From NCBI GenBank assembly GCA_000934665.2, contig KZ538771.1, positions 1-48,644 on the forward strand: a DNA stretch of 48,644 nucleotides, given 5' to 3'. Made by a program: the position numbers and the translations under genes. The notes beneath the pieces were generated by a model. The model saw nothing but the letters and a program-made list of their open reading frames with translations. It did no database searches and had not been told where the DNA came from. This stretch comes from Catajapyx aquilonaris. Taxonomy: Eukaryota. How positions within the stretch are numbered: the first letter of the stretch is position 1; each line of letters starts with the position of its first letter. This document shows, piece by piece, positions 4,780 to 28,500 of this stretch.

Positions 4780-4993
4780 NNNNNNNNNNNNNNNNNNNNN
4801 NNNNNNNNNNNNNNNNNNNNNNNNNNNNNNNNNNNNNNNNNNNNNNNNNNNNNNNNNNNNNNNNNNNNNNNNNNNNNNNNNNNNNNNNNNNNNNNNNNNN
4901 NNNNNNNNNNNNNNNNNNNNNNNNNNNNNNNNNNNNNNNNNNNNNNNNNNNNNNNNNNNNNNNNNNNNNNNNNNNNNNNNNNNNNNNNNNNNN
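4780..4993. other. Assembly gap (N run) between poly-C and poly-G tracts
   Basis: N characters; could hide sequence, including an exon. Confidence 0.99.
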
Positions 4994-5285
4994 GGGGGGG
5001 GGGGGGGGATTCATTGCGTAATCTATCCAATACAGTATAGGCCTACTACACTTCTCTCTGCGACAGTTTGAAAATATGAAAATATTAAATTTAAACAAAC
5101 AAAATTAGAAATACATAAATTGCGACCCTTTGCCTCGAACAGCGTCATTTTTATTAGGCGACAGTATTGCATTGTAATAGAATAATTATTATTCTATTTA
5201 ACTGTTAATTATTTTTTTGTTGATGTTTTAATGTGCATAATTTTCTATTTAAACTGTATCATACGTACGAATGTTTAAAAAGGAA

Positions 5286-5830
5286 CAGGGTTTTTCACTA
5301 GGTAGTCCCCCCAAAGAATCAGCTATATTTTTCTTACCACTCTACCTAGAAACGTGATGTTTGGTTTAAGTTACCTTCGTTCAAGGGAATGTAGCTCCAT
5401 TCTTAATAAATGCTGGGATTGACCTTCAACAACCTCCATGTACTCGAACGCGACTCGACGCGATGCTCCTTATTATCGAAGATCCTCCGCAGCAAATCCT
5501 CATAAATGGTCCGGATTGCTGCACTGATGTTGCTTTCCAAGTCTTCTAGCCTCGAGCCTCATTGTTGTATGCACAACTCTTCAAATATTCCCGTTCGTGT
5601 CTCTTTTGACAGGTGGAAACAGGACACCCGGCGATATGCCTGCTTTCTTGTGACAAAATAGTGGTGACTTTTTCTGTCATTCCAGCAGCCAGTGCTTCAC
5701 TTTTTTGATTCCCCCCCCCCCTCTCTAAAGGAGGTCATCTGCTACTGTATTGGTCCAAAACACTCGGTGCAGAAATCCTGACTATTAATGTTGATAAGCT
5801 GTGCAGGGCCTTTGATAATAAGGAGCGTCG
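5286..5830 (-). mobile_element. Decayed Tc1/mariner-superfamily transposon, 3' part
   Basis: Frameshifted minus-strand remnants REYLKSCAYNNEAR / LEDLESNISAAIRTIYEDLLRRIFDNKEHRV / YMEVVEGQSQHLL resemble the transposase C-terminus WGYLKSKVY..P..LE.L...I...I...LL.RV..N...R...C...GGHFEHLL. TIR-like end CAGGGTTTTTCA at 5286. The 5830 boundary is approximate. Confidence 0.65.
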
Positions 5831-7648
5831 CTTGGTGTTAAAACTTTTGAATAATGCATGAATGACACATTAGAGCGGTAGTACAGTGCCTTTATACAGT
5901 ATACTTGTACAGTACATCTGAGCCCGTCAAATAAGGTGTGCTGATACAGTGAAACCTGCCTATAAAGGAACTTTGAGATAGCGGAAACTTGGCTATATTG
6001 CGGAAGATTTTTGCTCGCTTTCCACTGCTTTTAAAAATATAGTCTACCTCTCAAATTGCAAATTCAAAATTTTGGACTTTTCAGATTAGGACAATTTTAC
6101 GAGCTTTTGAATTGCTCTTAAAACCACCTATGAAAGTCTTGATACACCTTCATTGCAAATGAGTGGAGAAAGACGATTTGACGTCAGCAGTTCGATGACT
6201 TCACAAAGGGACACGTAAATAGTACAAGTACACACTGTTCATCTATTTTATAACCGAAATATGACCCGTAAAAAAAATACTACACAAATTATTACTGTAA
6301 CTATTCGACCGGGAGATTCTTCACGCGACCTTTAGCCTTGACCTTTTCGTACCACGCAAAAATAAAACTGAAATATACGTAGGCCACTCTTCAACCTCAA
6401 TCTCCAGGTATAGTACTTCAGCAGTGGACAGAAGCCTGTCAAGACAATACCGATAAAAGAGTATTCATTCAGTACCATGGAGATGACACGTTTGCAAGAT
6501 TCAAGGTTAACAACACAGCAGCATAAATGGTGCAAAAAAGGGAAAGGGTGTATTCTGTTAGTATTTACGAGTAATAATTTTAATCTACATTAGATGCCAA
6601 TTCTCTAATGTTGCTATTTCCCTACTATATTTGTGTCGTAAATCTGCTAACGCCAAACGGTGTGTTCCTCCATTATTTCCTTTGGTATGCATATGACAGA
6701 CGTTCTTATGGTATTTTAAAGGCCAATTCAAAAAATGTAAATTTTTAAAATTAAAAACAACAACATAATATTATAGGGTTGGATTTCTGAGAAGTAGAAG
6801 AAAATAAAAAAAACGAAAAGAAAACGAAGGGGAAAAAAAGAAAGAGCTAAAAATCTGTTATGTATCACTTTGCTTCTTCCAGCAGGATTTACGGGTCATT
6901 TCCGGCTCCAAAATATGTCCTGAACACGGAAATGGCCCCATGTAAGTAGGAAACCTAGGAAACTAATTTCTAGATGGCACAGCGCCACCGTGTCAAGATG
7001 AGACAGCAGTTTCGTTCATATAGACCCCTAGAGCTCATCATTTTATTTTTCCCTGCATGCCTTAGGCAGTTACAACGTGGGGGCGGCGGATTCTACTTGT
7101 ATACCGCAGTCCATATACACTATACACTAATAACTATAACACTATAAGATATATAACATCAAATTTCTCAAATGGAAATCAAAATATTACTCTGTCCTTG
7201 CGATGCATCACTTGCGATGCAGGTATATCTCAAAGCAATATTTGCGGCGCATATACCGTTGTCGTCGCCTCCTCCCTCCCCCCCCCCCCACACCATTTTT
7301 GAGTTCTTTATCAGAAAATGGAGGTGTTCTTTTATTCTCATTCTTGGGACTTGTTTACAATGAAATCCGCGTCAGTTTTCGCCGAGTGACACGTCCACAT
7401 CCTTTTGAGCTCGACACGGCTAAAAGGTATCTTCCCTATAATGTACTGTACTGGAGAAAAGAAAAGCCTGAAAACAATCTTCCTCTTTCTCCAACATTTC
7501 AATCTGCCATTATGATATACGTATGTATAACCCATAACCGGAACTCTGAAAGACGGGCGACCGGAGGCGAGCAATCTACCTTTGTTCCGAGATCTGACCT
7601 CACTTTGGCATCGGATTTCACCAACACTCGCCCAGGTTGTGAACTCAC

Positions 7649-7687
7649 CTGAGTCAAGTTTGGCATATATTGAGGCGACAGCAGCTA
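7649..7687 (-). CDS. Candidate 39-nt micro-exon of the CEP170-family gene
   Basis: aatttacAG|TA GCT GCT GTC GCC TCA ATA TAT GCC AAA CTT GAC TCA G|GTGAGT. Consensus donor, phase 1 to 1 matching exon 6, stop-free (VAAVASIYAKLDS). No homology support. Confidence 0.45.
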
Positions 7688-8348
7688 CTGTAAATTATCA
7701 TCCGTGAGATTTGCAGGTACGAAAGTGTACTCAATTCTGACACACCTGGTAGATTGTCGTTTGTGTAACTATACTATAGGCCCCTAATCTATTCTGGATT
7801 ACCTCCACACGTCGCATTCGCCTATAGGTCCCCGTGGAGATTCCTATACGCTACAACCTCTCAATATGTAAAGTAGGTTATAATCGCGTACCATTCAGGT
7901 AATAAGTGTCTTAAAGTGCAGCAAAATTTTATCATGGGAGATTCTACTGACAGCCCTCCCCAATGCTTTACGTAAGCCTCACACAAATGCGATATTCAAC
8001 ATTTCGGTAATGACGGAGCCCTTACTTATAATAATAATGTCCAGTACGCAATATTCCGTTGTAGTGTACCAGTTATGCTCCTCACAACTCCTCGAGACTG
8101 ATAATAGTGCCATCACTAACTTAGAATAAGATTTTTAAAACAACGTGACGGGTCAAATATCGTATGTGCCAAAAAAAATTAGCCTACCTTTGCAATCCCA
8201 AATAATAAGCAGAGCAGAAAGCAAGTGCGATGCGCAAAAGCGTCGGAGGGTGCATTAGAGTACCACTGAAACATAATTCCCACGCCCAGAACGCCCACAA
8301 CAATGAAATTTTTTCCTGGAAACGATTTAAAAATTCAAGTAGGTCGCC

Positions 8349-8621
8349 TATTCTCTATCCCGAAGAGTATAAGGCAGGTCACACCCACCACGCCTTATCT
8401 GATGCAGCCCACTCCTGATCACCTACCGATGTAACTGAGGGCAATAATCTCGGGAAAACGAGGGAGTTGTTAAATGTCAAAATTTTTACAGAAGGTAAAT
8501 AGGAAGCAAGCACGTCTTGCCCAGTTTCTTATCGCACTCCGTTATCACGGTGGGTGGTGATCCAGAGTGGGCTGCATTCAGATAAGACGGTGTGTTATGC
8601 CTTGGGATATACAGTAGAATA
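8349..8621. mobile_element. Degenerate MITE-like inverted repeat
   Basis: Left arm ...CCTTATCTGATGCAGCCCCACTCCTGATCACC... pairs with right arm ...GGTGATCCAGAGTGGGCTGCATTCAGATAAG...; ends TATTCT / AGAATA. Confidence 0.6.
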
Positions 8622-10470
8622 CCACATGATTGTATTGCCTACCTTGTTTTTTTCTGAAGCATTCATTTATGACCCTGGGAAGCTCAACGGCAAAGACGAT
8701 AGCATTTAAAGATTCTAAAGTATCTAAACCTTCAAAATTAGAATGTCTAAAGCTTATACTTGTATTTCATCAGGCTGCAAATGATTTTGATTGTAACACT
8801 TAACACTTTCCACTGCCCACAAGTGGCGAATTACTTCCTACGGTTGGAAACAGGCCGAGTCAAAATTGAATATAAATTAACTGAATCAATGTTAAAATGG
8901 TGCCAAAACCCACAGTAGGCTATACTCTGACTGACATAAGAATGATTTTTGCCATTAGAGAATTCCATTCACAAACAAAATGGCATAAGATTGAAATAGA
9001 AAATTATTACTCATTATGTAACCTTTAAGCTTTAACCCAAGTTATCCTGGCTTATGTTTTTAGTTGATTACCTAATGAGGAATAAACTCAGTTGCCTAGC
9101 ACATTCCAAAATCACCTTTCTTACAATACACATCATAAACAATAGAGTACCGTAATTATCAAAATATTTATTATACCGTACCTGATGTTTTCAAACATAA
9201 ATGTCCGTTGTGGTTCGCGACTTCTTGGTTCTTAAACTGTTTATTTTTACGCTGTTGCTTGTGACGAGTTACTTTCAGGGGCTATCAAAAACATGAGCTG
9301 CGAATATTATAGGCCGAATTGAAAAATCTACCCAAGCTTTGAATTGCAATGAATTTACGATTGGGAATGGCCTCTAGAACTCGTGGCATCGAGTCGCAAA
9401 TAGATTCCATTTTCACAGGTATTGGATCCTCGCACCCTAATATCAGTAGTTAATATTTTTAATACCTACTAAATGAGCTAACCCAAAGTAACTGCTTTAG
9501 AATACGCCGCTTAGTGCCAAAAATCGCCAACCAATCGGGCCATTTCAGCTTTACTATACATACCCTGGATATCATCAAAATAATAACCCAAAGGACCAAA
9601 CGAAAGGGTGGCATTCAGCAGGGTTATTCTTGTGACCAGTCGGAATTACCCTGCTGTCCTAACACTAACCTGTGACTCGAGACCTTGGCCAAAAAATAAC
9701 CCAGTGACCGCAATAAACTAAAGCCTTTCCACATTTTACTGGCACCTTCCAAATATTTCGTGTTTCCTGTTTAACGCCTCGCTCTTTTTTTGGCAAGGAC
9801 CCGACCATTACCCCACCGTCTTTTGGTGGCGAACACCGTCATAAATAACTCTCAACACATATCCTGCCAATACCAATTTTGGAATGTGACCATCGGGGTT
9901 TCCTTTCGCCAATCTAACCCTGCACGTAAACCTGCCGAGTCACCACCGGGCCTATGACCGTATTTAGGGTGACGGAGGTTCAGAAAGAAACAAGGGGAGA
10001 AGGTTTAAAATATCACACGTACAATAGGCACTTCATGGCTGGCTGCAAGTTTCATTCTGGTTCTTGACACACTCAGTTTGCTGCGAGGTCTCAAGCTAAG
10101 GACGGATGAGTTACTACCTCTCTTTACGCTCCTCCCAAAAAATCTGTCCCATTAGGAACCCATCACTTTGAAATACGCGCCAGTAGTTTCCCTGACAGCT
10201 AATTTAACAATTTTGTTTCCGACACAGCCGGGTCAGAGGTCGCCAAACCATATGGCACTAAAGCTAAAACAGTCCTGCTGGGGATTAGGAATGGTTGTCA
10301 AATGTTTTGTTTTTTGTTTTTGTCCCNCACCCCCCCCCCCCCCCCCCCCAGTCCCTCCCTACTCGAGTGCTTCCCGACACAGTTATTTTTACGGTCTGAA
10401 TGGGCCATTATATTTAAATCTGTGAAATCGAAGGATGCGCGCACACAAACACACACACACACACACATAC

Positions 10471-10590
10471 CATCTGTAATATCCACCTTCCCGTTGTCCA
10501 GACTGATCTTCTCCCACCAACACGCCGGCGTGTAGGTCGGCAACGTCTGGCTGCGCTCCAGGAACGGCGGTAGCAACGCCATACGCTCTC
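10471..10590 (-). CDS. CEP170: CEP170-family coding exon 6
   Basis: Acceptor ttgtttcacaccttgtgcAG|, 120 nt, phase 1 to 1. Encodes (G)ERMALLPPFLERSQTLPTYTPACWWEKISLDNGKVDITD; donor ATG|GTATGT. The P-x-x-W-W resembles the CEP170 GTPLYGQPSWWG motif. Confidence 0.75.
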
Positions 10591-12052
10591 CTGCACAAGG
10601 TGTGAAACAACCTCGCCATTACACTGGCCATTTCATAATAAAAACTAGCCAATATACCGTTCTTGACTGGGGAGGGATCAGACTGTTTCTAAACAGTATG
10701 ACACTGGACAATGCATGCCCTAGTATTCATGTCTCAATGTCACCAAAACGCCACATGCTATGATGATGCCTTCCAGTCAAAAATGAAGTGAATTATTTCG
10801 ATCTTGAAATAGGTCGTGGAATCACCATAACTAATCACAATATGAGAGTTAATGATACCTTGTCTGAGGACTGTTTTTTGGAGCTCCCGCGAAAAATTTT
10901 GGGAAGCACTGACATATAGGGCTTACCTAGTTGGGGGAGGTGTAATGGCACAGACAATCAGAAGGTGTGTAAACATGTCGATTGGTCCATCAAAGAATGA
11001 GATAGGCGGGTTGTGGTTGTTAGGTACGTACCATATTAAAGCCACCAGCATTGCAGAAGGACCATGTCAAAGGGGCAGGTTATGATGGGTTCAAAGCCTT
11101 CCATTAAAATCATTTGTGAATGTTGTCATAGACCGGGATCAGTCATACAAGTACCTCAGTGTACTGTATACAATAACTGCTAAGTTTAAAAAAATTCCGG
11201 AGGACTCCTGAACCTCCTCTCAAGATTGCATGCTGTATATTTTACTTTCCCACGTTTCATTTTGGTTGGGGATGGGAACCCTACCAGCCGTAATATTGAT
11301 GCCAATTTTATGCTGTCATTTATTAGAAAACATTAGTGAAAGTAAACAAGAACTGGTCCAGTATAAGTGGCTTCCTAATAATGATGTTGTTTATCACAGG
11401 TGGATAAGGTCTACTCAAATTCCACGTATCATGCGTCTAATATTTACCAAGACATTCATGTGTGGTATCGTTTGTTAAAAATATTTCCATCTAAAGTTAC
11501 GTTTTTTGCTGTGTGTCACTTAGGTATTTTTTTCGTATTTCACATATTAATTAAATCTACTAACCAACATTTGCATGTCAGTCATTTGCACAAAGGCATG
11601 CTTGACATTTTCTCTCAATTGAGTTATAAACGCTACCACCATTGCCTAGTGCAGCCCCACTCTCTGACAAAAGGTGAAACCATAATGTGTCATGAAGTCA
11701 TGCAGAGAGCATATTCAAAGCAATTCTTACAGCAATTTTAGATAACTCATCAATCTGATATTTGGCTTTCCAATACACGAGAGTAGTTTACAACCTTGCA
11801 CAAGACGACCGACATAGATGAAACTGATCAATATCATGACTTTGCAAAAGTACCATTATGTTGTACAAGGGATTCTCTCGCTAGGAAACCCTAAAATTCC
11901 TCAATAACTTTTTAGTTATTGTACTGTTTTCTATGAAAATTAACATGTACTTACCCTGTATGTTGCCTAGGCACATGTTCTGAAAAGGGTCCCTTCCAGT
12001 ATCCAAGCACTTTTGTATGCGAATCTGCATATTGGCAAGGACATACTAATAT

Positions 12053-12753
12053 AATAATAATTGATAATAATTGATTGGGTATTCGGCTAGCCCCAAAGGG
12101 GCCTTCTGCCAGACCTTTATTTTTTATTTTTTATTTTTTTACGTTACCCCGTGCTAGGGCCATGGGTCCTTATAGGGGGGTGGGATACCACCATTTTCTT
12201 CAATTTTCTATTTTTTCTTCTTCACTCCGGTGCAAGGATGAAAGGACATGGGGAAGGGATAGGGGATTTTTGGGGAGGGAACATGGGTGCAAGGTGCACG
12301 TCTGAAAACGGGTCATGTGCTGTCCCCCAGGAGGTTAGGTTGCCAGACACCTCCTTGGTGCAGGTCAGAGACCCTCCCGACGCAGGTGAAAGGAAAGTTC
12401 CCCAGGCGGGGATCGAACCTGGGGCCTTTCACACAGCAAGCCGTGACGTTACTATCACGGCCACCACACCTCCCCCGCCAGACCTTTATTTTAGATGGTG
12501 TACAATTTTTGGGAATCCTATTTTTGAAGCGCCCGGGCCCATGGGCAGGATGACAGGAGGGGATGTGCAAAGTGCAGTGAATCTGACGCTGTGGCCATTT
12601 TTAGTGAACTCCCCCGGGTGGTTTAGTCTGTAGGAAATACCACCCGAGACGAAGCCAGAGGTGACCCTGAACTCTGCATGAGATGAAGGGGGTGTCCCAG
12701 GGCTGGGATCGAACCCGGGACCTTAACATCCGCAGCGCCACTCCGTCTCCCTT
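12053..12753 (-). mobile_element. tRNA-derived SINE, family B (interrupted by a family A SINE)
   Basis: B box GGTTCGATCCC, (ATT)-rich tail and a 15-bp TSD AGGACATACTAATAT at 12038-12052 and 12754-12768. Homologous to the copies at 16.3-16.7 kb and 35.7-36.0 kb. Confidence 0.9.
12124..12476 (-). mobile_element. tRNA-derived SINE, family A (nested)
   Basis: Starts GGGGGAGGTGTGGTGGCCGTGATAG, B box GGTTCGATCCC, A-rich tail. 16-bp TSD GCCAGACCTTTATTTT at 12108-12123 and 12477-12492. Homologous to 24662-25020. Confidence 0.92.
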
Positions 12754-14506
12754 AGGACATACTAATATGATATCGTTAATAGCACTATGGCAGCACCCTC
12801 CTGCTGTATCACCACTTTCAGGGCTTCAATTGTTTGCAGCTTATTGCTGTAAGCATTTTCTTGGCAATGTCAGTAATTCATCATTTACCTCCTGCACCAG
12901 GCACTCAGACATCTTCCGGCCTCCTGCGTGTTGACTCAAAACATTTCCTGTTGTCTCTATTTTTCGCCAATTTGTGAATACAGAATTTTGACTGTACACT
13001 TCCTTCACCATTCTGAAATGTCCTTTGACACTGTTTAAATATATTCACGAACAATACATACACACTGATCAACTGAGGATATGTGTTAGCTCATGTCTTC
13101 GCCATTACGCAGACTTGCATATGAAAGTGCTTGGATGCTGGAATGGACAATTTTCAGCATGTGCTCCTGGCAGATCTTGTTTTGCAATATACAAGGTAAG
13201 TACATGTCAATTTTCATAATAAACCATGCGGTTAATTGAAAAAGTTATTGAGGAATGTTTGGGTTTCCTGGTGAGAGAATCATCCTGCACAATGACAATG
13301 GAAACCTTGTTAAAACCAAGTTTCTTATTTAGAGTAAAACATTCAATACATCAAAATATTCTTTGTACGAGTTGATATCCATACTGAATAACCAGTGTAA
13401 GCCATTTCATGACATAATCAACTTATCCTCTCCACAACTTAGGTTCGGTGGAGATGCATGATTATGTCACTAAATAGCCTGAGCAGGTGTTTGATATGTA
13501 TGTCTCATTACTGTGGCAATATAAATTCAGTGTGCAGGCAAATCTGGGCAGGTGGAACTGTAGAAGCAGTAGTGTTATTGAAAGAGGAGAGGGTTCATGC
13601 ATAACCAATTAAGTGGAAATTATATTGTCTCAGTTGACCAGCAAAGGCTTCCCAGCATGTTCTATATGAATTGAGGCTTATAATTTACGAAAATATCCAG
13701 GCTCTCTTTGTAAGCTTGCAGGTTTACAGCTTCATATGCCACAGTTGAAGACATAAAATTACCTGCCACAGAATATACAAGTGCAGTAGCTTACACTCTG
13801 ATGCCATATAGAAATGGTATACGTATACTACAGGTTTCTAAGAAGGTCAGCTATACAGTATGGCTTAGCTCTGCTACTGGAATTGCAAGGATAAGGTCTT
13901 GTGACCATCATCTTCGACAGGCCTATATTGCACAATGTGAATGGCTGGTTACTTTGGTTCTAAACTACATGCTGTTAGGTATAATAGCAAATTTTAAAAC
14001 AATAAATGTTCATCTTATCACAGCATTATGTAGGCTACCATATACAGCTGGTTCCAATTGAGTTATTGCTTAACTTTGCAATTTTTCTTATTATTTAGCA
14101 CTTTCTTTTAGGAGAAATCAGAACAATTAGCAACTAATGTTAGGTGGAATAAATTAATATTTTTACATGGTCTAGTCTGCACAAATATTTGTTCAACCAC
14201 TGACCTCAGAGACCACTGGGTCAAAATGGGTCATATGCCAAAACGGTCACTGAAAGTCATTTAAGCTGAATGATATGATGGCTAAATGAAAAATACAAAA
14301 TTAGGATATCAAGTCCATACAAAATTATTACTGCATTAATCACATCCTTATTTTTTTTTGCCTATTTGCAAGCTACTCATGGATGGTCTTCCTGAAGCTC
14401 AGCCAGTATAAGAAATATTTCACTGACAAGTGACAACTAATGAATAACTTTAACAATTTTGCGCCTTTATACCCTATGAAAGTAATGGAATGTTGTCAAA
14501 ACTCAC

Positions 14507-14912
14507 CTCCACATGACTCCTGCTCAAAGCAACAGTTTGCCGTCCCAAACACCTCGTTAGGCACACTTCTGTCTGGCTCGAAGCCCATGAGGTGATTTAG
14601 GGATTCAGGTTGACTCTCCTCTGCCTTCGAGGTGGACACAGTGTCCACTCCGGAGAGAGAGTCCTCTGAGAACACCGACTGGATGCTGGTGTTGCTAAGG
14701 CTAGAGGTGAGGTCACTGACTAGTACCTCATTAGGAGTCTTAGCTTTGTCACTCGGAGTGCGACACGCAGCACCAAGTACCTCCTCCAGAACTTGGGCAT
14801 GATCAGGGATGTTAGCAGGCATGACTGGGATGCTATTGGGACGGATCTCCTTGTCTACTACCTCTGGGGACGGCATCGTGGAAACTCCATTCTGTTCGCA
14901 TCCAAGGGGAAC
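14507..14912 (-). CDS. CEP170: CEP170-family coding exon 5 (S/E/P-rich, probably disordered linker)
   Basis: Acceptor gacatgcAG|GTT and 406 nt of open frame VPLGCEQNG...FEQESCG. Donor GAG|GTGAGT, phase 1. Phase-compatible with both neighbours, after a 107-nt intron. Confidence 0.85.
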
Positions 14913-15019
14913 CTGCATGTCACAAAAATGTTGCATATTAATAAGAAGGAAGCAGATCTACACAATGGGAGGCACTCCCAAATATCGCATCAGAATAACA
15001 AGAATGGAAAGCTTTTCAC

Positions 15020-15138
15020 CTGTTCTTCTGACCCAGACAACTTTTCCGCATTGTTCCTTTCCACCACAGTCGTCGTTGACTTCAGGTCTTCAGTGATGGT
15101 TGCTGGTGTTCCCCTCCGCACTTGGTAAACTCCAGAAT
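15020..15138 (-). CDS. CEP170: CEP170-family coding exon 4
   Basis: 119 nt after the AC acceptor, encodes (D)SGVYQVRRGTPATITEDLKSTTTVVERNNAEKLSGSEEQ. Donor CAG|GTGAAA, phase 0. Confidence 0.85.
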
Positions 15139-15742
15139 GTGCCCGATGGTTAAGGGTAATATATGTACAGCACACAGCACTGCTTGAAAACCAGCATGCC
15201 ATGTCGAATTGGACTGATGCTATGGCCGAAACAAACCCACTGATATTGCAAACCGCCTTAGTCACCAGGCTTTTCCTCAATAGGGCTGGAATTTTGAGGA
15301 GGTACCCATGATCAGTCTGGCCGAAACATTTCCCCCACTGCAGCTGCTCCTGACGGCGAAGTAATGCAGCCCCCCTCAGCTTCGACTCAAACCCACCACA
15401 GATTTCTGTCTCCACCTCGAGTTTCGCTGGGGTGTTGGGGGTGAGACACGAGAAAATAATGTTTCAAAGTACCTTCGGCGGAAGAGAGACCACGTTGAGG
15501 GACACATGAAGCGTTTATTGGGTCCTTTTCGGCACCGAACGGAATGATTTAAGCTACCCGGTGGGGGTTTTTTTCCGTCCCCCCCTCCCCCGTTTTTTTT
15601 TTTTTTTTTAAGTAGTACAACTTTCGCGATGCGGGAAATGATGATCGTTGAGGCAACGGTCTAGCCGTTATCGACCCTCCTGCATTCCTCTTTGCCAAGA
15701 ATTTTGACCCCCCTAATTCGAACACTGCTTTTAAAAGGATAT
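15139..15742 (-). other. U12-type (minor spliceosome) AT-AC intron, 604 nt, phase 1
   Basis: 5' splice site |ATATCCTTTT at 15742. Branch point CCCTTAAC at 15156-15149, followed 10 nt later by the terminal AC| (15140-15139). Splicing gives G+AT = Asp and continues in frame. Confidence 0.93.
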
Positions 15743-15821
15743 CGAAGCCAAATCGCAAGCTGTCGTTGTGATCGAGTGCGACGTACGTTTGCTCCGGGAT
15801 TCTGACATCGTTGACAAATGT
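15743..15821 (-). CDS. CEP170: CEP170-family coding exon 3 (end of FHA domain)
   Basis: 79 nt, encodes [26 protein letters not shown] plus the G of the Asp codon. Near-identical to recalled vertebrate [27 protein letters not shown]. Confidence 0.95.
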
Positions 15822-15919
15822 CTGCAAATAAAAACAGGTCATATTATATTTTTAACAGTTGATATGCTTGGGAGAAAATAACAAATAACGTCGCAATATG
15901 TAGACCTCTCGATACTTGC
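15822..15919 (-). other. 98-nt GC-AG intron
   Basis: Donor GGG|GCAAGT and acceptor tttttatttgcAG|ACA. This junction rebuilds the contiguous FHA motif NG-TFVN. The nearest GT dinucleotides would frameshift or insert residues into the motif. Confidence 0.85.
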
Positions 15920-16009
15920 CCCATTTGTGCTATTAAGATCCTTCACTTTGAACTTGTGGTCCTCAGAATCCAAGGTGAGCACTGCATGCCGTTTGTCGAC
16001 ACTGGGACT
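15920..16009 (-). CDS. CEP170: CEP170-family coding exon 2 (FHA domain)
   Basis: Acceptor cattttcAG|, 90 nt, encodes SPSVDKRHAVLTLDSEDHKFKVKDLNSTNG (FHA S-x-x-H-type and DLxSxNG motifs). Ends GGG|GCAAGT, a GC donor. Confidence 0.93.
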
Positions 16010-16152
16010 CTGAAAATGCAACGAGTAGTACACTATTAGGCATAGTAATAGAGGAGCTGGACACGCCCTTCCCTGCGGATAACATTTCTAGGACCACGCC
16101 CGTTTTATCCTAATAGCTTTTATATTGCAACTGCACTCCTGCAATATATTAA

Positions 16153-17534
16153 CCCCTTCGCCCCCCAACTATACCGTCTAGATTTTCGTTTCTGTTCAAC
16201 TTACGTGTACTCTGAAGCAAATGACAAGATATTTTACAAATAATAACAGCTATATTTACACATTCATAATGATGATGATGATGATGATGATGATGATAAT
16301 AATAATAATCGTGGATAGTGCTCTCACCCTTATCGGGTATCTCGCACGGACCTTTATTGATCATTAGGATGCGATGTATACAATACATACGTACAATTGG
16401 AACCTTGAGCCCCAGTCACCCTGCCCCCCAGTCACCCTGCCCCCCAGTCACCCTGCCCCCCAGTCACCCTGCCCATGGGCCCGGGCGCTTCGCCCGGGCC
16501 CATGGGCAGGGTGACTGGGAGGGGATGTGCAATGTGCAGTGCAATGTCTATAACGTGGTACATTTTGTGAACTCCCCAGGGTGGATTAGTCTTTCGGAGA
16601 TTCCACCCGAGACGAAGCCAGAGACGACCCAACTCTGCACGAGATGAAGGGGGGAACCCCGGGCTGGGATCGAACCCGGGGCCTTAACATCCGTGGGCGC
16701 ATACGTTTCCGCAGCGCCACGCCACTTCGCCTCCCCGTTACTTACACATTCATGATGTACTACACTATGAATGTGCTTGGAACATTTTCCTCGTCTAGAA
16801 GTCCCTATATTAATTTCCAAAGAGATCGCCGCAGAGTACCAGCGCCTAGATTTTCGATTACACGAACTCTGAACATAAGGACACGATATTTTACATATAA
16901 TAACAGTTACACTTACGCGTTCATGGAAAATACTGTTATGTGTTTGGAACCATTTTCACTCATCTATAAGTCCCTAAATTAATTCTCCAAAAAATCGCCG
17001 TAAAACACTAAATTCCAGTAGCTACTGCCGACCAAATGTTAGGCTGATTTAATTATGAAATATGTTAAAATATCCTGAATACCTACCGGTACCTTGAGAA
17101 TCGTGCCAGACGAATTTGCCGAAATCGTCGTACTTCGCGAGAATTAAATGAATTGATAAGTTTTCCGAAGTAACAGGAAAGCCTCAGATAAGCATTAATT
17201 AAATTCGCGTAAAGTACGACGATTTCAGCCAATTCATCTGGCACGGTTTTCAAGGCAGGTATTCCGTATATTTTAAAGTAATTCATAATTAAATCAGCCT
17301 AACAGTTGGCCGGTAGTAGGCCTACTCAAATTTCAATTTTTACAGCGATCTCTTTGGAAATTAATTTCGGGATTTCTAGACGATGAAAATGGTTCCAAAC
17401 ACATTCATATAGTGCTTTCTATGAACGTGTAAGTATAGCTGTTATTATTATTTTGTAAAATATCTTGCTCTTATCTTTAGGTACGCGTAAGTGAAAAAAC
17501 TAGGCGATGGCAGGTGTATCTGGGGGCGAAGGGG
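16153..17534. mobile_element. Non-autonomous piggyBac-like foldback element
   Basis: TTAA TSDs at 16149-16152 and 17535-17538, with a 13-bp TIR CCCCTTCGCCCCC. The interior is a long imperfect palindrome centred near 17180, and the left arm carries a tandemly duplicated subunit. Confidence 0.88.
16268..16736 (-). mobile_element. tRNA-derived SINE, family B, inserted in the piggyBac-like element
   Basis: GGGGAGGCGAAGTGG start, B box GGTTCGATCCC and (ATT)(ATC)n tail. Flanking repeat TTACACATTCAT at 16256-16267 and 16742-16753. Contains an internal inverted duplication and 15-16-nt tandem repeats. Confidence 0.88.
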
Positions 17535-18267
17535 TTAATGCAGTCGGATGGAACCCGACATGCATCCTCGTCTCAGGCTACTGACTTTTTGTATTAACTT
17601 AATAGTGGCATAAACAACGACTTCCACCAGCTCCCATCCACACCTACTGCGTTCTATACTGAGATTTTATTTCCACCAAGTTCCACATTGGAAACGCACC
17701 TCGAGGTATATGGTTTTGCTAAAGAGAACTATCCTCAAGCTTAATCATATCTGTAAACTTCAAGCGGCTACAGTGCGGTAAAGCGTAAAGTAGTACTACA
17801 GTACATAGGACCGATTGTCCTGGTCCCTTCGCGGAGGTAGCATGGTACAGTACGACCTGAGCAATTCGCAGATTTATCTATCACAAAGGTCGGGGTCGGG
17901 GTAGTTTCCCTTAGTCAGCAATAGGGATTACCCCAGGGTCTGCAGGGTAACGCACCCTGACCTTACCCTGTTTTGTTAACAGGCCAATACCTGCCCAGTT
18001 AACCAGGAGAAATAAGAATGTTGCCAAGATTTTATGGTATGATCAGAGCTCTCGTGTAGCAGCCGCATCTTTTGAGTGAAAAGGTATTGATTTGACATTT
18101 TTTTAAACATTCAGAAAAACTCGTGCTAGATTTACCGATGATTCACGTATACGATTTACCTGTCATTCGCCCGTGATTCACCTGGTCTAAATGATGAACT
18201 GTGGATCACATTTAAAATACGCACACCCCCCCCCCCCCCCCCCACCACACACACACACACACACACA

Positions 18268-18540
18268 TGTTATAAAGTGCTATCCTTGTGAGGGTCTGGC
18301 AAAAATAAAAATTTAAAACTAACCTAACCTAACCTAACCTAACCTAACCTACAAAATACACACGAAATTTTGGTGACCTATTTTTTCACAGTAAAAAGGA
18401 GGTCTTGGTTTGATTTTCCGCCATCCTTGTGAGGACTGTGTACGTTATGAGGGCCTGAAAAAAGTCCTCGTAAGGTTTTCGGTCCTCACAAGGATAGGAA
18501 ACTTGCGAAAAATATCCTCACAAGGATAGCAATGTCTGAC
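18268..18540. mobile_element. (CA)n-embedded non-autonomous element with (CCTAA)n array, variant 1
   Basis: 16-bp subterminal inverted repeat TGCTATCCTTGTGAGG (18278) / CCTCACAAGGATAGCA (18516). Internal repeats of TGAGGAC/GTCCTCA, (CCTAA)n at about 18318-18351, and CA runs on both sides. Confidence 0.75.
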
Positions 18541-18567
18541 CACACACACATACACACACACACACAC

Positions 18568-18899
18568 TCTTGTCTTGACTAAGGCGTGGGGACGGACATT
18601 GATCACTTTTCACTGCGAGTGTAAACTGATCAAACCTAACCTAACCTAACCTAACCTAACCTAACCTAACCTACCCTACCCTAAGTAACCTAGGCTGAGA
18701 AAAATGGACTTTTGTGAAACCCTACAAATGAAAATAGTGGGGACATGTCCCCACTAATTTACACATGTCCCCACTGTAATGGTACACTTCGCGTGTGTGA
18801 GACTGTGGGGACCGACAAATGTCCCCACAATTGGAACTGGTCCCCACAGCTACAGTAAAACCACAGACTTCCGTCCCCAGACCTTAGTCAAGACCTGAT
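18568..18899. mobile_element. (CA)n-embedded non-autonomous element with (CCTAA)n array, variant 2
   Basis: 25-bp subterminal inverted repeat (23/25 match) at 18572-18596 and 18870-18894, with multiple GTGGGGAC/GTCCCCAC motifs. Homologous to 24132-24474. Confidence 0.82.
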
Positions 18900-21664
18900 C
18901 ACCCACCCACACACACAGTATTGTCCTAATATCAACAGGAAGGGAACATAACACAATAGGTGAAGGCAAAAGAGATGGACACTTCTCCTTTAAGTGTACA
19001 CCTGACCACCATTACTCGTAATTATATATGATTGTACCACAAAGTCGTATACACCTATAATTACGCAAGTAGCCAACCCCTCCGGTGAAGGCCAGTAGAA
19101 GATGGCTAAAAAATACGACTACCACAGTAGGCTTATTTGGGTTTACTTTATTTTGATTGCAACCAGTTTAATAGCCTACAAGTACAATTTATAAATAGAA
19201 CATTCTAAACCACGTGTAACAAAATTCAGCGAACATTCAAGCTTCAGTGAATTTTTCGGTCGCTCCTTAGTCAAGTTGACATGCTACGTATATGGTATAG
19301 TACAGGCCAGGAGAAGAGACATTCCCCCCAGTACATTTTCCCTCACCTTGCAATCAGGGAGCCAACAAGCCTCACCATCGCACGCAAAATTTCCACCTGT
19401 ACGAATCTACACTGAATTGTTACACGCAGTATAATAAAAATGCAAAATAAACAGTGTAATATTCCCGCGACCTCGATGAGTCCGTATTATGTAAAAACCA
19501 GTCCACCCACACGGAGGAGCCCAATAAAATGTAGTACGTATGCAGAAAAATATGTACAGCAATTTTAATAAACATATATGCGGCGCTATATTTGCAATAA
19601 CACCAAACTCCTATATAGCCTACCCATAATTCCAACATCAGAAAACCAATCAGTCAAACTTCGCAGAGAAAATAAGCCCCCCAAAAGCCATTAGTTGTAG
19701 ATTTCTATTCCACGTCCCATCCCGAATGGATTCTTATTACCAAATGGAATCTTGGAAAAGCCTGTGAGCTGCAGGATGTCGTTTCGCACGACTCTTCGAT
19801 CCATCAAAATTTCCTAGATCAATGACGACACAGTTTGTAGTGTCTCCCATACATGCTATAAAACCTCACTCGGAAGTGCCCACGATTTACAAACCCCCAG
19901 TAAAACAATAAATCGCGACACCTACTTCCTTCTGCTGGCTGGACCGACTCTCCCAAAGTTCCTTGTTCCTGGCAACAATATTGGGCGGGATGAGCACAAT
20001 CTCGCTCAGAAACTGCTTCTGCCCCGATATCTCCGATTCCACTTCCATCCTGGCACCAACCCCTCAACGATGTCCAGCAGTGTCACAAACCGCCTGGCAT
20101 GTATGTCCAAACTACTGCTCCAAAAATTACAACCCATGCAAAAATGTGGAAGAATCGCAACTAAGCATCGAGGCCGTTCCAGACCGAGGTTTGCAGCACA
20201 GGATTCGCCACAAAATTCCGAAAATGTCCAAAATTTGCCCCTCTGGTCTTCCTGGGCGGCAACAGCCGAAGGGTTTGATGGGTCACGTTCAAGTGCCAGA
20301 TATAGAGTGGCATCACATGCCATATCAGAACAAGCCCTTCGCTTGTTGTCTCCGCCCTAAGAATTTCTGCACTCATGGTCATCCTCCATCTCATCATGGA
20401 TATCACGTTTCTTTTCTCTCCCACGCCCTTCTTCCACGCCCAATTCGAATATTTTTGGGACACATCTCCCTGCCCTTTCCGGGTTATTTATTTACTGGCA
20501 CAGTCGCAGGCTATGCAACAATAAATACTCAGGGTTATTAGACCTGGAAGTTACAGGGTTCCAGACGAAACTAAATATACGCATTTAAAAGTAGGCCTGC
20601 CTTGTGTTAGCATTCATGTCAGCAATACAATAAAAATAACAAATCTAAAGTATTTTTCTAGGGAAAAGGAATTCTCTGATATACGTAGGCCTACACATAA
20701 ACGCCATTAATTAAGCTTATTGCTTTTCAAACACTGTCGTCTAGAAGTTATATCGTAATCATTAGGAGAAACTGCTCTTTGGACCTCGCCCATGAGAGAG
20801 GACGTGGTGACCTCCATCCATCATCATTTACTCAAAGTAACACTTATAACCGACCAGACCGGGGGTACAACTATACGAATACTGACCCGCACTAAAATTA
20901 TTTTTTATATTTGCTAAAAATAAGTTTCCCGCAGTTAGACAAATATTTTTCAATTTACGTAGTACATTGACCGACTTTGACGCATTTTAATGCATTTATT
21001 TGTGAACATCTAGCTTAGCAAAAAATATGTGAGGTCGTCTAACTACTTAAAAACGTAGTCCTCTTATGCTGTGTATACACATATTTCGCCTCAGGCCATT
21101 TCCAGAAAGTCATTAGACGTAAGGTACAGTAAGTTCTCACGCGTGCGATGGGTCAAAAAAAGGTGCGTTTTTTCGTTGTTTTTTTGCAATGTCCATCTGT
21201 CTGCGGTGCATTTTAGGGGCCTTTCTAAAAAATGCGATGAAAGTGAGGCGGATTCGGATATTCACAAATTCAAACCATAAACGTTACTTTATTTCGGATA
21301 AATATACTATTTTACTACTCGGCTACCATTCAATGCCTGTATTTTTAAAGACTTACTTCTGAATATAAATGATCGAAGCACATTACAGTAAACTCTATCT
21401 GCATATATACCCTTGAGGCATGCTTTCATAATCAGGTACTCCGCTGGAGTACTCTATAGAGAGTTCAAATTTTTTTGTCCACCGCAAATTCACAAACAAC
21501 ACGTGCACGAGAATTACCTCGATTTCACGTTACTTCCGCGAGAGATAAAGAAACTATCATGTATATCGTATTTTTTCAGATATTTAAGCTCTTCCTGTAT
21601 ACACTGTTCATCAATAATAATTTGTACCCATACATTAGACGCATGTAAAATACAAGGTAAAAGT

Positions 21665-21924
21665 TGGGACACACGGTGGCGGAGTGGTTAGCGCCACAGC
21701 CTTCCACCTCTAAGGTCCCGAGTTAGATCCCCGGATCGGACGGAGGATACTTATATGGATAGAGTTTCGATGGGTTCTCTCCGTGTTCGCGTGGGTTTTC
21801 TCGGGGTTCCCCCGTTTCCTCCCGCAATCAAAATCCATCACACGCAGGCAATTATTAAAGACGGTTCACGAAAAGATGATCCCCTAAGAGGCCCAAGGCC
21901 TATCACGGGGTATCCATTATTATT
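21665..21924 (+). mobile_element. V-SINE (tRNA head, V-domain, LINE-like tail)
   Basis: A box GGTGGCGGAGTGG and B-box-like GAGTTAGATCCC. Central GTTCTCTCCGTGTTCGCGTGGGTTTTCTCGGGGTTCCCCCGTTTCCTCCC matches the V-domain consensus as recalled. 11-bp TSD AAGGTAAAAGT at 21654-21664 and 21925-21935. Confidence 0.88.
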
Positions 21925-22723
21925 AAGGTAAAAGTACAGCTTGCATCAATACTTTAAAAAAATACAGGCAAATCCTGCTGCGTCCCCATGCATGTCTTCC
22001 ATCAAAACCGCCTTAAATTTCACTGTTGTAAATAAAAGTCGGAAGAAACATTTCTACCTAAAACATCCGTAAAATCCAACAAGCATGTCACACTCGGGTG
22101 ACAGCTTATGGCCCGCAGATGTGTACAAACCACCAGGGAAGAGCAGAGCAAAAGAACCCGGACAATTTTACACGGGTTTCAGAGGCACTATAGAATCCGG
22201 ACTTGAGTTTCGTCTGCTGCCTTTGTGGACCTAAATTTAAACTCGTCTCGACGCCTGATTTACGATCCGTTTCATGAGTGTCAGTCTTTTAGTACCGGTA
22301 CGCTTGCATATACCATCCGAATATTCACAATGTAAAGACGACATAAATAATCGCAAAATAGATTTTCTGCGATTTTCTTAGATGATTTATAATATGTTGT
22401 AGGCATAACCATTATTGCCAAATTTGTGAAGTGTCGCCAAGGGAAGTGTTGAGACGTCATAGTGTTAATCGCAAATCCCACCTTGTTCCTGCTGGTCCAG
22501 GCTCCAAAGAATTAAAATACGGTCTCAAATTGAAAACTATTTCGGTTCTGCTTTCGATCCCCATGCGGAGTATAGGATCGATGTAGGCCTATACACAGTA
22601 TTTAACAGAAGTATTCCCCAGCAATCGCAGTCCGTTCTTCCAGCATACAAAAATTCCCACCAAAATTGTGTGAAAGTTACAGGTCACCCTTTATCCATCA
22701 TCCCCATCTCCACCATCATCACG

Positions 22724-22880
<157 letters not shown>

Positions 22881-22900
22881 ATCCATAAATTATCAATACC

Positions 22901-22962
22901 ATACTATCTTAGCTTTATTTGGCTGATTATATATAATCAGCCAAATAAAGCTAAGATAGTAT
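22901..22962. repeat. Perfect 62-bp spacerless palindrome (possibly a collapsed MITE)
   Basis: ATACTATCTTAGCTTTATTTGGCTGATTATA followed directly by its exact reverse complement. Confidence 0.95.
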
Positions 22963-24131
22963 ATTGCCAATTTATGGACGCCCCTTTCACAATGTTTTCC
23001 ACCTGTAAACCGTAATTTGGCCGTAGCATTTTGGTAGGATGTACTTATTCATGATGTGTCTCTTCCTACACAAATACGAACGCCTATACTCCGGTTGATG
23101 GCTACCTTGGCCCCTACGCTTCGGGGGCTGAAATAACTTTCCTGCGTGGGCTCGAATATCCATCGAGTTTCCTCTTCCCATTAATCCGTTCATATAGCCT
23201 ACACATGCGAGGTGTAACGGAATTCTTTTACCCGCCACTAGCTTATTATCTGTCGTTTCCCAGGGGCGCCTGGTGTTCTTTCATATTTGACTGGAAACCT
23301 TCTGTAATGCAACTTTCGTGCGACATCACAGCAACTTCTGAACATGCAGCTAGGCTACAAAACAGCAGTGGACACAGCAGTAAGGCCAGAGAAGATTTTG
23401 AGTAAATGACTTGGAAATTTAATCAGTCACGCAAATGTAGTAGGAAGAACTTTTCTTTGTATGAAAAATTCTACGTGTCAACTGCTGCACTTGACAGTAC
23501 CTCATGCAACGGGTACGAGGGGGGTGGCGGTATATGCCGACTACTCTGACGCAAAGCGAAGTTACAAGTCGCATTTAACACAATTTCAGAAATAACAAGT
23601 TTATGGTGAAAAATCCCGTGAAACCTGGACCGCAGTGGTAGTAGTGTACAGTACAGTATAAGCAATCAGTACAATCATGAAATAACTCAGTAGAGCGGTG
23701 GAATTTATATAACTTGACGTGTGCATATAACTTACTAGCCTTCTACAATATGCTTGATCCGGTATAAATTAGCACCTGATTATTTAAGCACGCCAACTTG
23801 ATGTCTCATTACTAATTCTGAAAGGTGTTAAAAATTAACCGTTTCACAAAAGGTTATCTGGTGAAATCAGTTCTCGCGTTTTGATCTACATTTCCCCCAT
23901 TTGCGCGTGGGACGATCAGTGAGTCACCGCGATGCGATGGTATCTCTACCTTGTCGTGGTGGAAGGGGTCTTGTGTTTCTCTCAGCGACCACAAGAGCTA
24001 TATCGGAAGAGCTTCCTCCAGTGGCAGGATCACCCAAGCCGGAAAGGTCTTTGGGGGGTAGTACTGTACCTGGTAGTACTAGTATAGACACACAGAGATA
24101 CCGCCTTTCTGCATACACACACACACACACA

Positions 24132-24474
24132 GTTCTGTTCTGAATTAGCTGTGGGGACGTGAAAATTCAATTTTTCGAAGCTAGTGTATACTAACCTAAC
24201 CTTACCTAATCTACCCTACGTCCCTACCCTAACTCACCTAGGCTGAGAAAAATGGACTTTTGTGAAACCCTACGAATGAAAATACAAAATAGTGGGGACA
24301 TGTCCCCACTATTTTTTTTCACGTCCCCACTGTAATAGTACTCAGCGCGTGTGTGCATGAGTGGGGACCTGAAAATGTCCCCACAATTAAATTCTGGGGA
24401 CACACGTCCCACAGCTATAGTAAAATATTAAAAAAAACACAAACTTCCGTCCCTTGAGCTAATTGAAGACCTGT
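24132..24474. mobile_element. (CA)n-embedded non-autonomous element, second copy of variant 2
   Basis: Shares CCTAGGCTGAGAAAAATGGACTTTTGTGAAACCCTAC and the GTGGGGAC/GTCCCCAC array with 18568-18899. Degenerate (CCTAA)n and CA flanks. Confidence 0.82.
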
Positions 24475-24661
24475 ACACCCACACAAGCTTCCTGTCTTCT
24501 TTCTCTCTTTATCTATTCATAACCAGATAGCCTAGTTTGCTTTGGCTTCTTCCCATTCACACGAACAAATGATCCGTGAAAATGTCAATCAAAATTTATA
24601 AACATATTTTAAGAGACCGTTTATAAATGGAAAATCAAGCCATAATGAGACCGAATATTTC

Positions 24662-25020
24662 GGGGAGGTGCGGTGGCCGAGATCGTAACGTCTCGGCTTG
24701 CTGAGTGAAAGGTCCCAGGTTCGAACCCCGCCTGGGAGTTCCCTTTCACCTGCGTCAGGAGGGTCTCTGACCCGCGCCTTGGAGGTGTCTGGCAACCTAA
24801 CTTCCTGGGGAACAGCGCATGACCCCTTTTCAGACATTGCACTTGTACCCATGTTCCCTCTCCAAAATTCACTATCCTTATCCTATTTGTCATTGATTCT
24901 TTGCACCGGAGAATGAAGAAAAAGGGTATATACAAGAAAACTGATGGTGGTGTGCCACCTCCCAAAAAGGCCCAAGAAGGCCTTTCACAGGGTAAAATAA
25001 ATTAAAAAATTGAAAAATTG
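24662..25020 (+). mobile_element. tRNA-derived SINE, family A
   Basis: GGGGAGGTGCGGTGGCCGAGATCG start, B box GGTTCGAACCC and A-rich tail. Colinear with 12124-12476 on the opposite strand. TSD unclear. Confidence 0.88.
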
Positions 25021-25526
25021 AAATTTCGCAGTTTAACTGACCAGTCTAATATCAGGGCTGTAGAGTATATAGTATTTTGGCATGAGGAATGACGCAGTCA
25101 CGAACCACAACGTTTCTACGAAGCTTTTAGAAGCTTCGTTATATTGATATCGGAAAAGCACCTAATGAAAGAGGCTGTATAGCCTACAGTATATACGTTC
25201 GTATCTCTCTCTCACGCCTTCGTTCTGATTCACCTTTAGCGGAATTGTGCACTGGATACGTTGATAAAGCTGTTTACTATATACTCAGCCGATTCCTTAT
25301 ATTAGCCTCCCACACCTCGAGTTGCTCTATTGAGCTTTGTAAATCGGATTTCACTTGACACCACCCATCGCCTCTCCATCAAGAAGACAAAAACCGTGAA
25401 CCCTTTCAGAAACCATGGAAACCAAAAGGACGTGGCGCAAAACATGACATTTTACCCTCTTCGTCGCCAAACAAATCAGGCCTTGGATACGGGTTTTCCA
25501 TACATATTTCAAATCTGTATTAATTA

Positions 25527-25527
<1 letters not shown>

Positions 25528-25580
<53 letters not shown>

Positions 25581-25591
25581 AATAAATAAAT
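25528..25591. repeat. (AAT)n/(AAAT)n microsatellite
   Basis: Direct reading of the sequence. Confidence 0.95.
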
Positions 25592-28500
25592 GAAATCGGG
25601 TAGGTAGGGATCCACACCTTATTGCGAAAGCCTAAATTTGAGGCCACTGGAGTCAAATCTCACGGAGATATAACAATGTTCAACAATGACGTCTACTAAA
25701 ATTTATTTTTACATTTCATTGGTCTCTTGCTCAGACACATGCCCAAGAATTAGGACCCAGACAATTAGTGATGTATTTGCGTAACATCAGTTGTATTTGG
25801 TGACACTAGTTGTGACCGACACAAAGTTCAGTATGTTCAGTTTGAGGCCTGGGTCATGCAGGGTTCTCCAGAAAATAATAGATATGTTTTGCAGATATAC
25901 TGTACCATTAATTTCACTGTTCTACAACAGACTTCAGTGTTCTTTCTGAAGATATGAATAGTGATTCCTTTAGTACTTTCTGTGCTGATTCCATATCTGT
26001 ACTTAGAATTGTGCTGCTAGGCACAGTTTTCGATAGGCCTATATACTGCTTTTACTAATACAGATCTATTAGTAAATGCAGTACATTTCCTTCCATTGAT
26101 TCTTAGTCTGATTGCTAATAGGCTCGTGTTAAGAACCCTGCGGCAGGGTGTTTCTTACGACTACTATTTCAGTGTAGCTAGTCGTTGGCCCAACAGAAGA
26201 TAAAAATTTAGAGGGTGAAAAATGTCCAGAGGCCAACAACTAACGAGGCAGACGACCAGGCAAATGTTCCTCGTCGTCTATAGGTCATTACTGGTTGGCC
26301 TCTCGGCATTTCTCATTCGTACATTTTTACCACTTGCTTTGGCGGACCAATTATTGCGCTACCACAGACATCCCACTAGCAAAAAACTCACTATGTATTT
26401 CTAGCGATTGAAATAGTATTTATTTGGCTATTTTGCAGGGGCTGCCACACGTCCTAATAAAGCCTTAATCAATGTTAGACAATGCAGAGTTGTTCCTTGT
26501 GATCTATTCGCTAGCCCCAATCAGTAACTTTATGGGAAGTTGCCTGGGAGATGGCAAGACACACAACGAATCCACAACCCTCCTTTTCAATTCTCTGTCT
26601 CCTTGACCTTAGCATGTATCCTCTCCCAGGAAAACAGCAATGACGTCAATATCAGGTGGAACCAAATTGAAACGAGTTGTCTGGCTTCTACGTCTGCAAT
26701 CAAATGTGGAAAGTGTGGAGGAATCACAAGTGCCAACATTAGCAAGAGCTAATTAGCTTTTGACATTAGTCTACCATGTACAACCTCTGTCGGACACAAT
26801 TCAAATGGACCGTCTGCCACAACTAACCCGCGACAGTCTGTCACCACATGCTTTAATTACTGCCGTACTCGACATACCAGAAAAATCAATTGTCCATAAG
26901 GTATAACAATCCTGGAACAACACCTCCCCCGATAATTGGGCACAGATGTAGCCACACGGAACAATTCGAGGCGACTATAACGAAAATTCTCATTATCCCA
27001 ATAAGTTCTGCACTGTACCAGTACAGTACGCAGTGTAGTAGTGCACTACAGTACGCAGTATAGTAGTGCACTACAGAATGCAGCCAGTGCTGACATCTCT
27101 CATCAATGGCCGCCACTATTTAGAAGGCAGCGAGAGCGTGTGCCGGGTCTTGCATTGATTTGGCACATTCATGCCAGTCGCTTTTTCATTTTTTTTTTTA
27201 CCTGCCTTTGTTCCTACAGCTATGGTCCCTTTTCGAACTTTTCTGAACAATATTATTTCCCTCTTCCCTGGAATCGGGTGCAGCCGGGTTATTTCATCTT
27301 AGCAACGGTGAATTACTCGAAAAATGGCATGCAAGTTTCGTTCGTCGTAATTAAGAAAGACGAACCCCAGCGAATATATGTTATGGTTTTCAGAATGCTG
27401 ATGTCGGCCATCATGTTGTTTACCTCCAGTTTGGGGCCGAATCCCGAGAAATTCGTTGGGTAACTTGCGAAACTCCAGATTGGAACCCACAGTTTGCCGA
27501 GCCAATCTGCTGCAATAGGCTACTTTCTAGGGTATCGGTGTCCGAACCTCGTAGTTTCCAGCGAAATACGCCATGATGCAACCGGCCCTTATTTAAAATT
27601 GCGCGTTAACTAGACGTACTTCAAAATACAGATTATACGGAAATCTATTTGGCTTTTTCGCACAATGAAAGATGAGGCAGCAATTTGAACAACTTCAAAG
27701 GCATTCAGTAATTTATAGTAACTTGTTCCTGCTCTCACATTTTTAAAAACCTTGGCGTAAGGTCTGCTGACAGCATCGCAGAGATTCCTGGTCACGCTTA
27801 ATTACATTTAAAAACGTAACAAACTAGTTGGCAGAGGTGCCGTAAAGTTACGTCATATTTTCCAGAATACCTTCCAACCAGGGTTAAAATATATGGATGT
27901 ATTTCCATATACTGTACGACTGAGTGCCCTGCATTATGCGTTTTAGTGAATGTGGTACATTAGGCTGAATCAAATTGACGTGTGCCATGCAACGTCAGCA
28001 GGCGATAATTTAGATCCTAGGGTTACTAATGTAGCCCACATTTAAGCCAAGTATTTGCATACAAGCCCATTTAATTACGTTCACCAATACATCTGTTTGA
28101 CCTCACATTACAAATGTATAATACAAAATTACAAATACGCTTCAAAAACCTACGCAGTACTAGTAGTCAGCAGCTGCTAAGCACAGCACTGCAGTAGTTC
28201 ACTCAAATTCACTCTAATATACCACATCAAGCATAAGCAAGTGCAAGCGGCAGTACTTCGCATATAAAATAAAATTAAACAATCGTCGGGGAACATCTTT
28301 TTATTTTTTAAATTTAAAAAATCCTTTGACATGTATTGTAGAATCATTTTAAATTAATAGCAGTCTAACTCGTATAAACTCATCTCAATTCTGCGAAAAA
28401 TGACCAATTCCATAAATTCCGCCCGACAAACAACCGCTCTAAACCATACGTTACTGAACACTTCGTACCTTCAAAAACTTGGAACCAATCCAGTTCCACT

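Follow-up and report, generated by a model that had tools for sequence, protein, structure and literature searches.

The question raised by this locus is whether the 604 nt between positions 15139 and 15742, on the minus strand of the 48,644 nucleotides of Catajapyx aquilonaris DNA analyzed here (the window), form an intron of the rare U12-type AT-AC class and, if so, whether that intron has a counterpart in other animals. The stretch (15139..15742, minus strand, phase 1, GC 0.49) carries the signals of the class, joins its flanking exons in an open frame, interrupts a gene of CEP170 type and agrees in position and phase with introns of two human genes. Read from these sequence features, it is very probably an A-type minor intron within a gene of the CEP170 family and the orthologue of the one known from human CEP170 and CEP170B, with a predicted splice junction of 15743/15138.

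Splice signals and their place in the window

The last base of the upstream exon is G15743 (...CGA TTT GGC TTC G), and the intron opens with ATATCCTTTT at 15742. Its first nine bases, ATATCCTTT (15734..15742, minus strand), make up a 5' splice site of the minor type with ATATCCTT at +1 to +8, and agree at 9 of 9 positions with the minor 5' site consensus. About 590 nt from the donor lies a branch-site motif, CCCTTAAC (15149..15156, minus strand; -18 to -11), which agrees at 7 of 8 positions with the branch consensus TCCTTAAC, and in which the second A of TTAAC stands at -12 from the 3' end. Ten bases, CATCGGGCAC, separate this motif from the next exon, and the last of them, C15139, completes the 3' terminal AC (A15140 C15139; 15139..15140). 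The downstream exon starts at A15138 and reads ATTCTGGAG, its initial AT completing an Asp codon as it does in both human genes. Splicing G15743 to A15138 splits that codon G|AT, gives the reading RFGF / D / SGVYQV and leaves the frame open for 39 codons, up to a donor CAG|GTGAAA at 15020/15019. The sequence-only reading had described this donor, this branch motif, an AC 10 nt further on and an in-frame RFGF-D join, and all of these elements are present on the minus strand at the positions that it gave.

Introns with AT and AC termini also exist in the U2-type class, where the AT is followed by a major-type donor sequence and the TCCTTAAC motif is lacking. That assignment was considered and is ruled out by the donor ATATCCTTT together with the branch motif CCCTTAAC at -12. 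Additionally, the two bases preceding the donor are CG and not AG, the upstream exon ending in TTCG. Passages of PMC11347168 describe AG at donor positions -2 and -1 as blocking minor splicing and favoring the major spliceosome, and describe the minor branch sequence as held under a well-defined distance constraint.

The distance to the branch adenosine also bears on the choice of the 3' site. An AG at 15131..15130 is in frame and only 9 nt past the AC, and as the main 3' site it would turn the element into an AT-AG intron and remove Asp-Ser-Gly from the protein. It stands 21 nt from the branch A, compared with 12 nt for the AC; a short spacing between branch site and 3' site is typical of minor introns, and 21 nt falls outside it. 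While A-type minor introns are given as AT-AN in sections of PMC8280824, both human genes have AC followed by AT at this point, and the ungapped match to human D-TNLFTV would be lost with the AG site. Main use of this AG is very improbable; it could be used to a minor extent, as an alternative to the AC.

The motifs by themselves are not unusual. RTATCCTTT was found once (1.42 expected; at least one occurrence in 78 of 100 shuffles), RTATCCTT twice (4.08 expected) and CCTTAAC seven times (6.53 expected), while loose pairs of a donor and a branch site with 3' end, spaced 60-20000 nt apart, were found three times against a simulated mean of 5.4 (400 windows, 363 of which held at least one pair). 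With the counts at the level of chance, motif-only statistics, including the simulation of donor and branch pairs, were rejected as support. Preservation of the frame was likewise rejected as a criterion, being satisfied by 317 in-frame, stop-free GT-AG, GC-AG or AT-AC combinations in the region. It is the place and not the motif that exceeds chance, and the case rests on position: the sole 9-mer donor match among 97,288 strand positions falls exactly at the end of the FHA match, with position 67 of the 67-position Pfam profile located two residues before the AT donor, and human CEP170 and CEP170B carry their AT-AC donors on the same nucleotide. Derived from the RTATCCTTT count, the probability of a random match on one position named beforehand is about 1.5e-5. 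The other RTATCCTT match, GTATCCTT at 32801-32808 on the plus strand, is probably a chance occurrence, since two were found where 4.08 were expected.

Within the intron, at about 15560-15605 on the minus strand, a run of 18 adenines (A18) is followed by G-rich and C-rich tracts. An old retroposed insert may have left this stretch as its tail.

The gene around the intron

On the minus strand, five exons with intact splice signals join into a single open frame of 272 codons. Coding exon 1 (30668..30790), located by searching for motifs of the FHA N-terminus, begins with an ATG at 30790, comprises 41 codons, ends at the donor CAG|GTAAGC and gives a gap-free alignment with the N-terminal part of a protein from the sea spider Nymphon striatum annotated as 'Centrosomal protein' (P0077). 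An upstream reading frame of four codons (ATG ... TAA; 30818-30832, minus strand) lies 42 nt before the predicted start. Intron 1 (16010..30667; GT-AG, phase 0) spans about 14.7 kb between a GTAAGC donor and a TTTTCAG acceptor and contains SINE-like repeats and microsatellites. Coding exon 2 (15920..16009; 90 nt, 30 codons) supplies the first half of the FHA domain and is followed by a short intron 2 (15822..15919; 98 nt, phase 0) of the GC-AG type, GGG|GCAAGT ... TTTGCAG|ACA, across which the in-frame join yields the FHA motif NG|TFVN. The second half of the domain is encoded by coding exon 3 (15743..15821; 79 nt), which ends in phase 1 (TTC G) at the AT-AC intron. Exon 3 is consequently flanked by a non-GT intron on either side, GC-AG upstream and AT-AC downstream.

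Beyond the AT-AC intron, coding exon 4 (15020..15138; 119 nt) is defined by its open frame and by the donor CAG|GTGAAA. Its frame returned no matches among solved structures at E-values up to 10, and its support consists of the open frame, the donor, a comparison of six residues with human CEP170 and the human acceptor strings. Intron 4 (14913..15019; GT-AG, 107 nt) leads to coding exon 5 (14507..14912; 406 nt, donor GAG|GTGAGT), which was delimited by open frame and splice signals, had no relatives in a word-index search that included longer proteins, and is followed by a continuation of the gene.

The assignment to the CEP170 family, made in the sequence-only reading, is borne out by profile and structure searches. 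The Pfam FHA profile matched the exon-2 frame (1.1e-6, positions 11-47 of 67) and the exon-3 frame (0.016, positions 44-67 of 67), and the best or only structure match of both frames was the FHA domain of human CEP170, 4jon_A (5.6e-4 for exon 2 and 1.6e-7 for exon 3). Residues 11-98 of spliced exons 1-3 form a gap-free alignment with the Nymphon striatum protein, with a score of 295. The gene has the N-terminal FHA domain closest to that of CEP170 by which the family is recognized. The same comparisons modify the proposed location of the intron at the end of the FHA domain. The Pfam profile does stop at this point, in line with that proposal, but the chain of the human structure runs on (TNLFTV), which puts the intron slightly within the folded domain and not after its end.

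In a rival reading, exon 3 continues downstream past 15743 as far as a GT-AG (or GC-AG) intron of the major type, the minor-type motifs being coincidental. The frame does stay open for 64 codons beyond the AT donor, the 317 in-frame, stop-free dinucleotide combinations leave ample choice of sites, and the HMMER alignment to the human chain reaches six residues into the read-through. The GT donors beyond 15743, however, agree with AG|GTRAGT poorly, at 2-5 of 8 positions. Over the whole interval from within exon 3 to the stop of the frame, the 10 listed GT donors score 2-6 of 8, the one at 6 lying within the conserved exon, and the GT donors accepted for this gene score 6, 7 and 8 of 8. Reading through would also add sequence that is missing from human CEP170, including a run of lysines encoded by the A18 tract. 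Compared with human TNLFTV under BLOSUM62, the six residues after the Asp reach 8 in the spliced version and 1 in the read-through, a difference that is weak on its own. Read-through into a downstream major-type intron is highly unlikely, and removal of an AT-AC intron at 15139..15742 remains the preferred explanation.

Only the 5' part of a CEP170-type gene is demonstrable within the window. The C-terminal CEP170 domain was not found by Pfam in the 94 minus-strand frames of at least 38 aa in 1..14520, where nothing scored above the cut-offs. This, along with the gaps in the assembly, would suit a decayed or unexpressed copy in which the signals survive as relics and no splicing takes place. 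The five successive exons with their 272-codon open frame and intact splice signals, and the good conservation of the FHA residues, speak against decay, and the remainder of the gene may extend past the window or be split into short exons. Of the explanations weighed here, a relic locus is the least credible.

Counterparts in human and other animals

The splice-site strings of the human genes were taken from de Wolf et al., EMBO J 2021 (PMC8280824; supplementary files 1, 2, 4 and 5, sheet 'U12 A-type'), in which an intron of each paralogue is entered as AT_AC. That of CEP170 (chr1:243200836-243211885, minus strand) has the donor TTT GGA TAT G|ATATCCTTAAA and the acceptor ...TTCCTTAGC CCCGTTTAC|ATACAA, and that of CEP170B (chr14:104877964-104878442) has the donor TTC GGC TAC G|ATATCCTGCC and the acceptor CGCCTTAAC ACGTGTCCAC|ATTCCA (PMC8280824). 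Both split the Asp codon after FGY as G|AT, in phase 1 (PMC8280824). The counterpart in the window, TTC G|ATATCCTTTT ... CCCTTAAC CATCGGGCAC|ATTCTG, has the same arrangement as both human genes, whose donors likewise show ATATCCT, and the intron accordingly occupies a position orthologous to that of a documented minor intron. An intron at exactly this point in the human orthologues also argues against continuing exon 3 past 15743. Further, the CEP170B intron is classed as minor and as responsive to minor-spliceosome defects in human and mouse by Olthof et al. 2024 (PMC11347168, Table S6), and a preprint (10.1101/2021.12.09.471104) names CEP170 among minor-intron genes. Two points of the sequence-only reading, that vertebrate CEP170 is a minor-intron gene and that the position would be a conserved one, are supported by these entries: the former by the 'U12 A-type' sheets, the latter by donor and acceptor strings of both paralogues that divide the same codon in the same way.

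The likeness is not equal in all respects. With that of human CEP170 the intron in the window shares the gene family, the Asp codon split G|AT after RFG-Y/F, the phase, the AT-AC termini, the donor ATATCCTT and a branch motif no more than about a dozen bases from the 3' end. The human intron is much longer, at about 11 kb compared with 604 nt, its branch motif, TTCCTTAGC, stops one base nearer the 3' end, and the Asp is preceded by Tyr where the window has Phe. CEP170B agrees in codon and phase, in placing exactly 10 nt, the last two of them AC, after CCTTAAC, in a downstream exon that begins AT TC (Asp-Ser) and in an intron of similar size (479 nt), and differs in its donor, ATATCCTG compared with ATATCCTTT. 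CEP170B is a paralogue from the vertebrate duplication, and the gene in the window is probably a single gene of the pre-duplication type.

The distribution of the junction among other animals was approached by scoring the exon-3 frame against a representative library of 1.84 billion proteins, which returned 85 matches at E-values up to 0.001. The 26-residue exon is present in 83 of the 85, mostly short translated frames of genomic DNA along with a few gene models, and occurs among the 83 as 42 distinct peptides. The other two (P0001 and P0003) are long repetitive proteins without the exon that match other parts of the query. It should be noted that the query itself held read-through residues (DILLK), which enriches the list for unspliced fragments with the same donor, so that 83 of 85 should not be taken as an unbiased proportion. 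After RFG-x, the sequence continues D-I-L in 82 of the 83 and D-I-F in the remaining one, and nothing is common beyond. Such a pattern is what translation of unspliced DNA through a G|ATATCCT donor would give, although D-I-L, as a translation, leaves some of the donor bases unfixed. The complete divergence of the homologues straight after D-I-L is a further point against an exon 3 that reads past 15743. At the other end of the exon, the residue before TFVN is Q (CAG) in 81 of the 83 and G in two. The Q looks, in most of the 81, like read-through of an acceptor, which would make the start position of exon 3 a common one; in at least two of the 81 (P0018 and P0054), both gene models, exon 2 is skipped and TFVN follows exon 1 directly. 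The two fragments with G look spliced to exon 2.

Ten invertebrate-looking members of the list were looked up, and two of them carry names. P0054 is KAL3873812.1 from the bivalve mollusc Sinanodonta woodiana, a mussel, and P0077 is KAG1671725.1 from the pycnogonid arthropod Nymphon striatum. Both models end inside the read-through of the intron, KAG1671725.1 with ...GYDILL and KAL3873812.1 with ...GYDILSKI, and these ends look like annotation errors caused by a non-canonical intron. AT-AC introns had been described as often mis-annotated, and here two public models terminate by reading into one. Word-index searches with the exon-3 frame and with exon 5, both including longer proteins, and with residues 1-40 of the exon-3 frame at E-values up to 10 returned no matches, and a correctly spliced full-length orthologue thus did not come to light.

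Taken with the human data, these sequences place the AT-AC intron in lophotrochozoans, ecdysozoans and vertebrates, as judged from translated donors in the first two. Because the three groups appear to share the intron, the comparison supports an intron position that dates from the bilaterian ancestor or earlier.

Splicing, its consequences and other features of the window

The minor pathway of U11, U12, U4atac and U6atac is textbook knowledge, and if it applies to the intron in the window, the U11 snRNP would pair with the 5' site (+4 to +9, TCCTTT) and the U12 snRNP with CCTTAAC, so that the branch adenosine bulges out, at about -12. U11 would then give way at the donor to the U4atac/U6atac.U5 tri-snRNP, the donor would be attacked by the branch A, and the nearby AC would be taken as the 3' site by virtue of its short distance from the branch point and not through a polypyrimidine tract. 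The resulting junction between G15743 and A15138 would rebuild the Asp codon and continue the last strand of the FHA domain. A conserved intron of this kind indicates, and does not prove, that Catajapyx aquilonaris has a working minor spliceosome, which is a reasonable expectation. Genes for U11, U12, U4atac and U6atac were searched for within the 48.6-kb window, with none at gathering thresholds or at E-values up to 1.

In human cells, the minor intron of CEP170 is removed inefficiently, and its retention rises from 0.186 in controls to 0.811 after 48 h of depletion of CENATAC, a minor-spliceosome factor (PMC8280824). By analogy, the intron in the window is probably also removed slowly, and CEP170 output in Catajapyx aquilonaris would therefore likely depend on minor-spliceosome activity. 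A far broader proposal would be that an AT-AC intron has stayed in the same Asp codon since before the split of protostomes and deuterostomes, retained because slow A-type removal lets the dosage of CEP170, and with it the function of centrosome and cilium, report on minor-spliceosome activity across animals and not in human cells alone. This proposal is speculative, and on balance we doubt it.

The more immediate consequence is for annotation, as gene predictors limited to GT-AG introns will truncate or distort this gene. Through this locus, a minor intron known from human CEP170 and CEP170B gains an invertebrate orthologue; the result is useful mainly for annotation, mildly informative on intron evolution and would not surprise a specialist.

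Several other features of the window were recorded. Runs of N, which mark assembly gaps, occupy 4780-4993 and 43591-43620, and three 'perfect' inverted repeats (I1-I3) reported around 4763-5010 were discarded as artefacts of the first of these runs. Long trinucleotide microsatellites of AAT, ATT or AGT units are located at 22707-22906, 25492-25616, 39004-39164 and 41468-41595. Beside a long microsatellite in intron 1 there is a perfect 30-bp palindromic hairpin (22894-22969; -44.3 kcal/mol, z -11.4), for which Rfam gave matches below threshold on both strands: mir-875 at 35.1 bits (cut-off 84) and mir-9/mir-79 at 33.2 bits (cut-off 58.6). The perfect symmetry of the hairpin points to a palindromic repeat more than to a microRNA gene. 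Lastly, copies of a short interspersed repeat, 81-95% alike and in both orientations, occur at 12600-12732, 16563-16693, 24734-24870 and 35753-35860. Parts of this repeat read like a tRNA arm (GGGATCGAACCCGGG), and two of the seven CCTTAAC matches of the window fall inside its copies.
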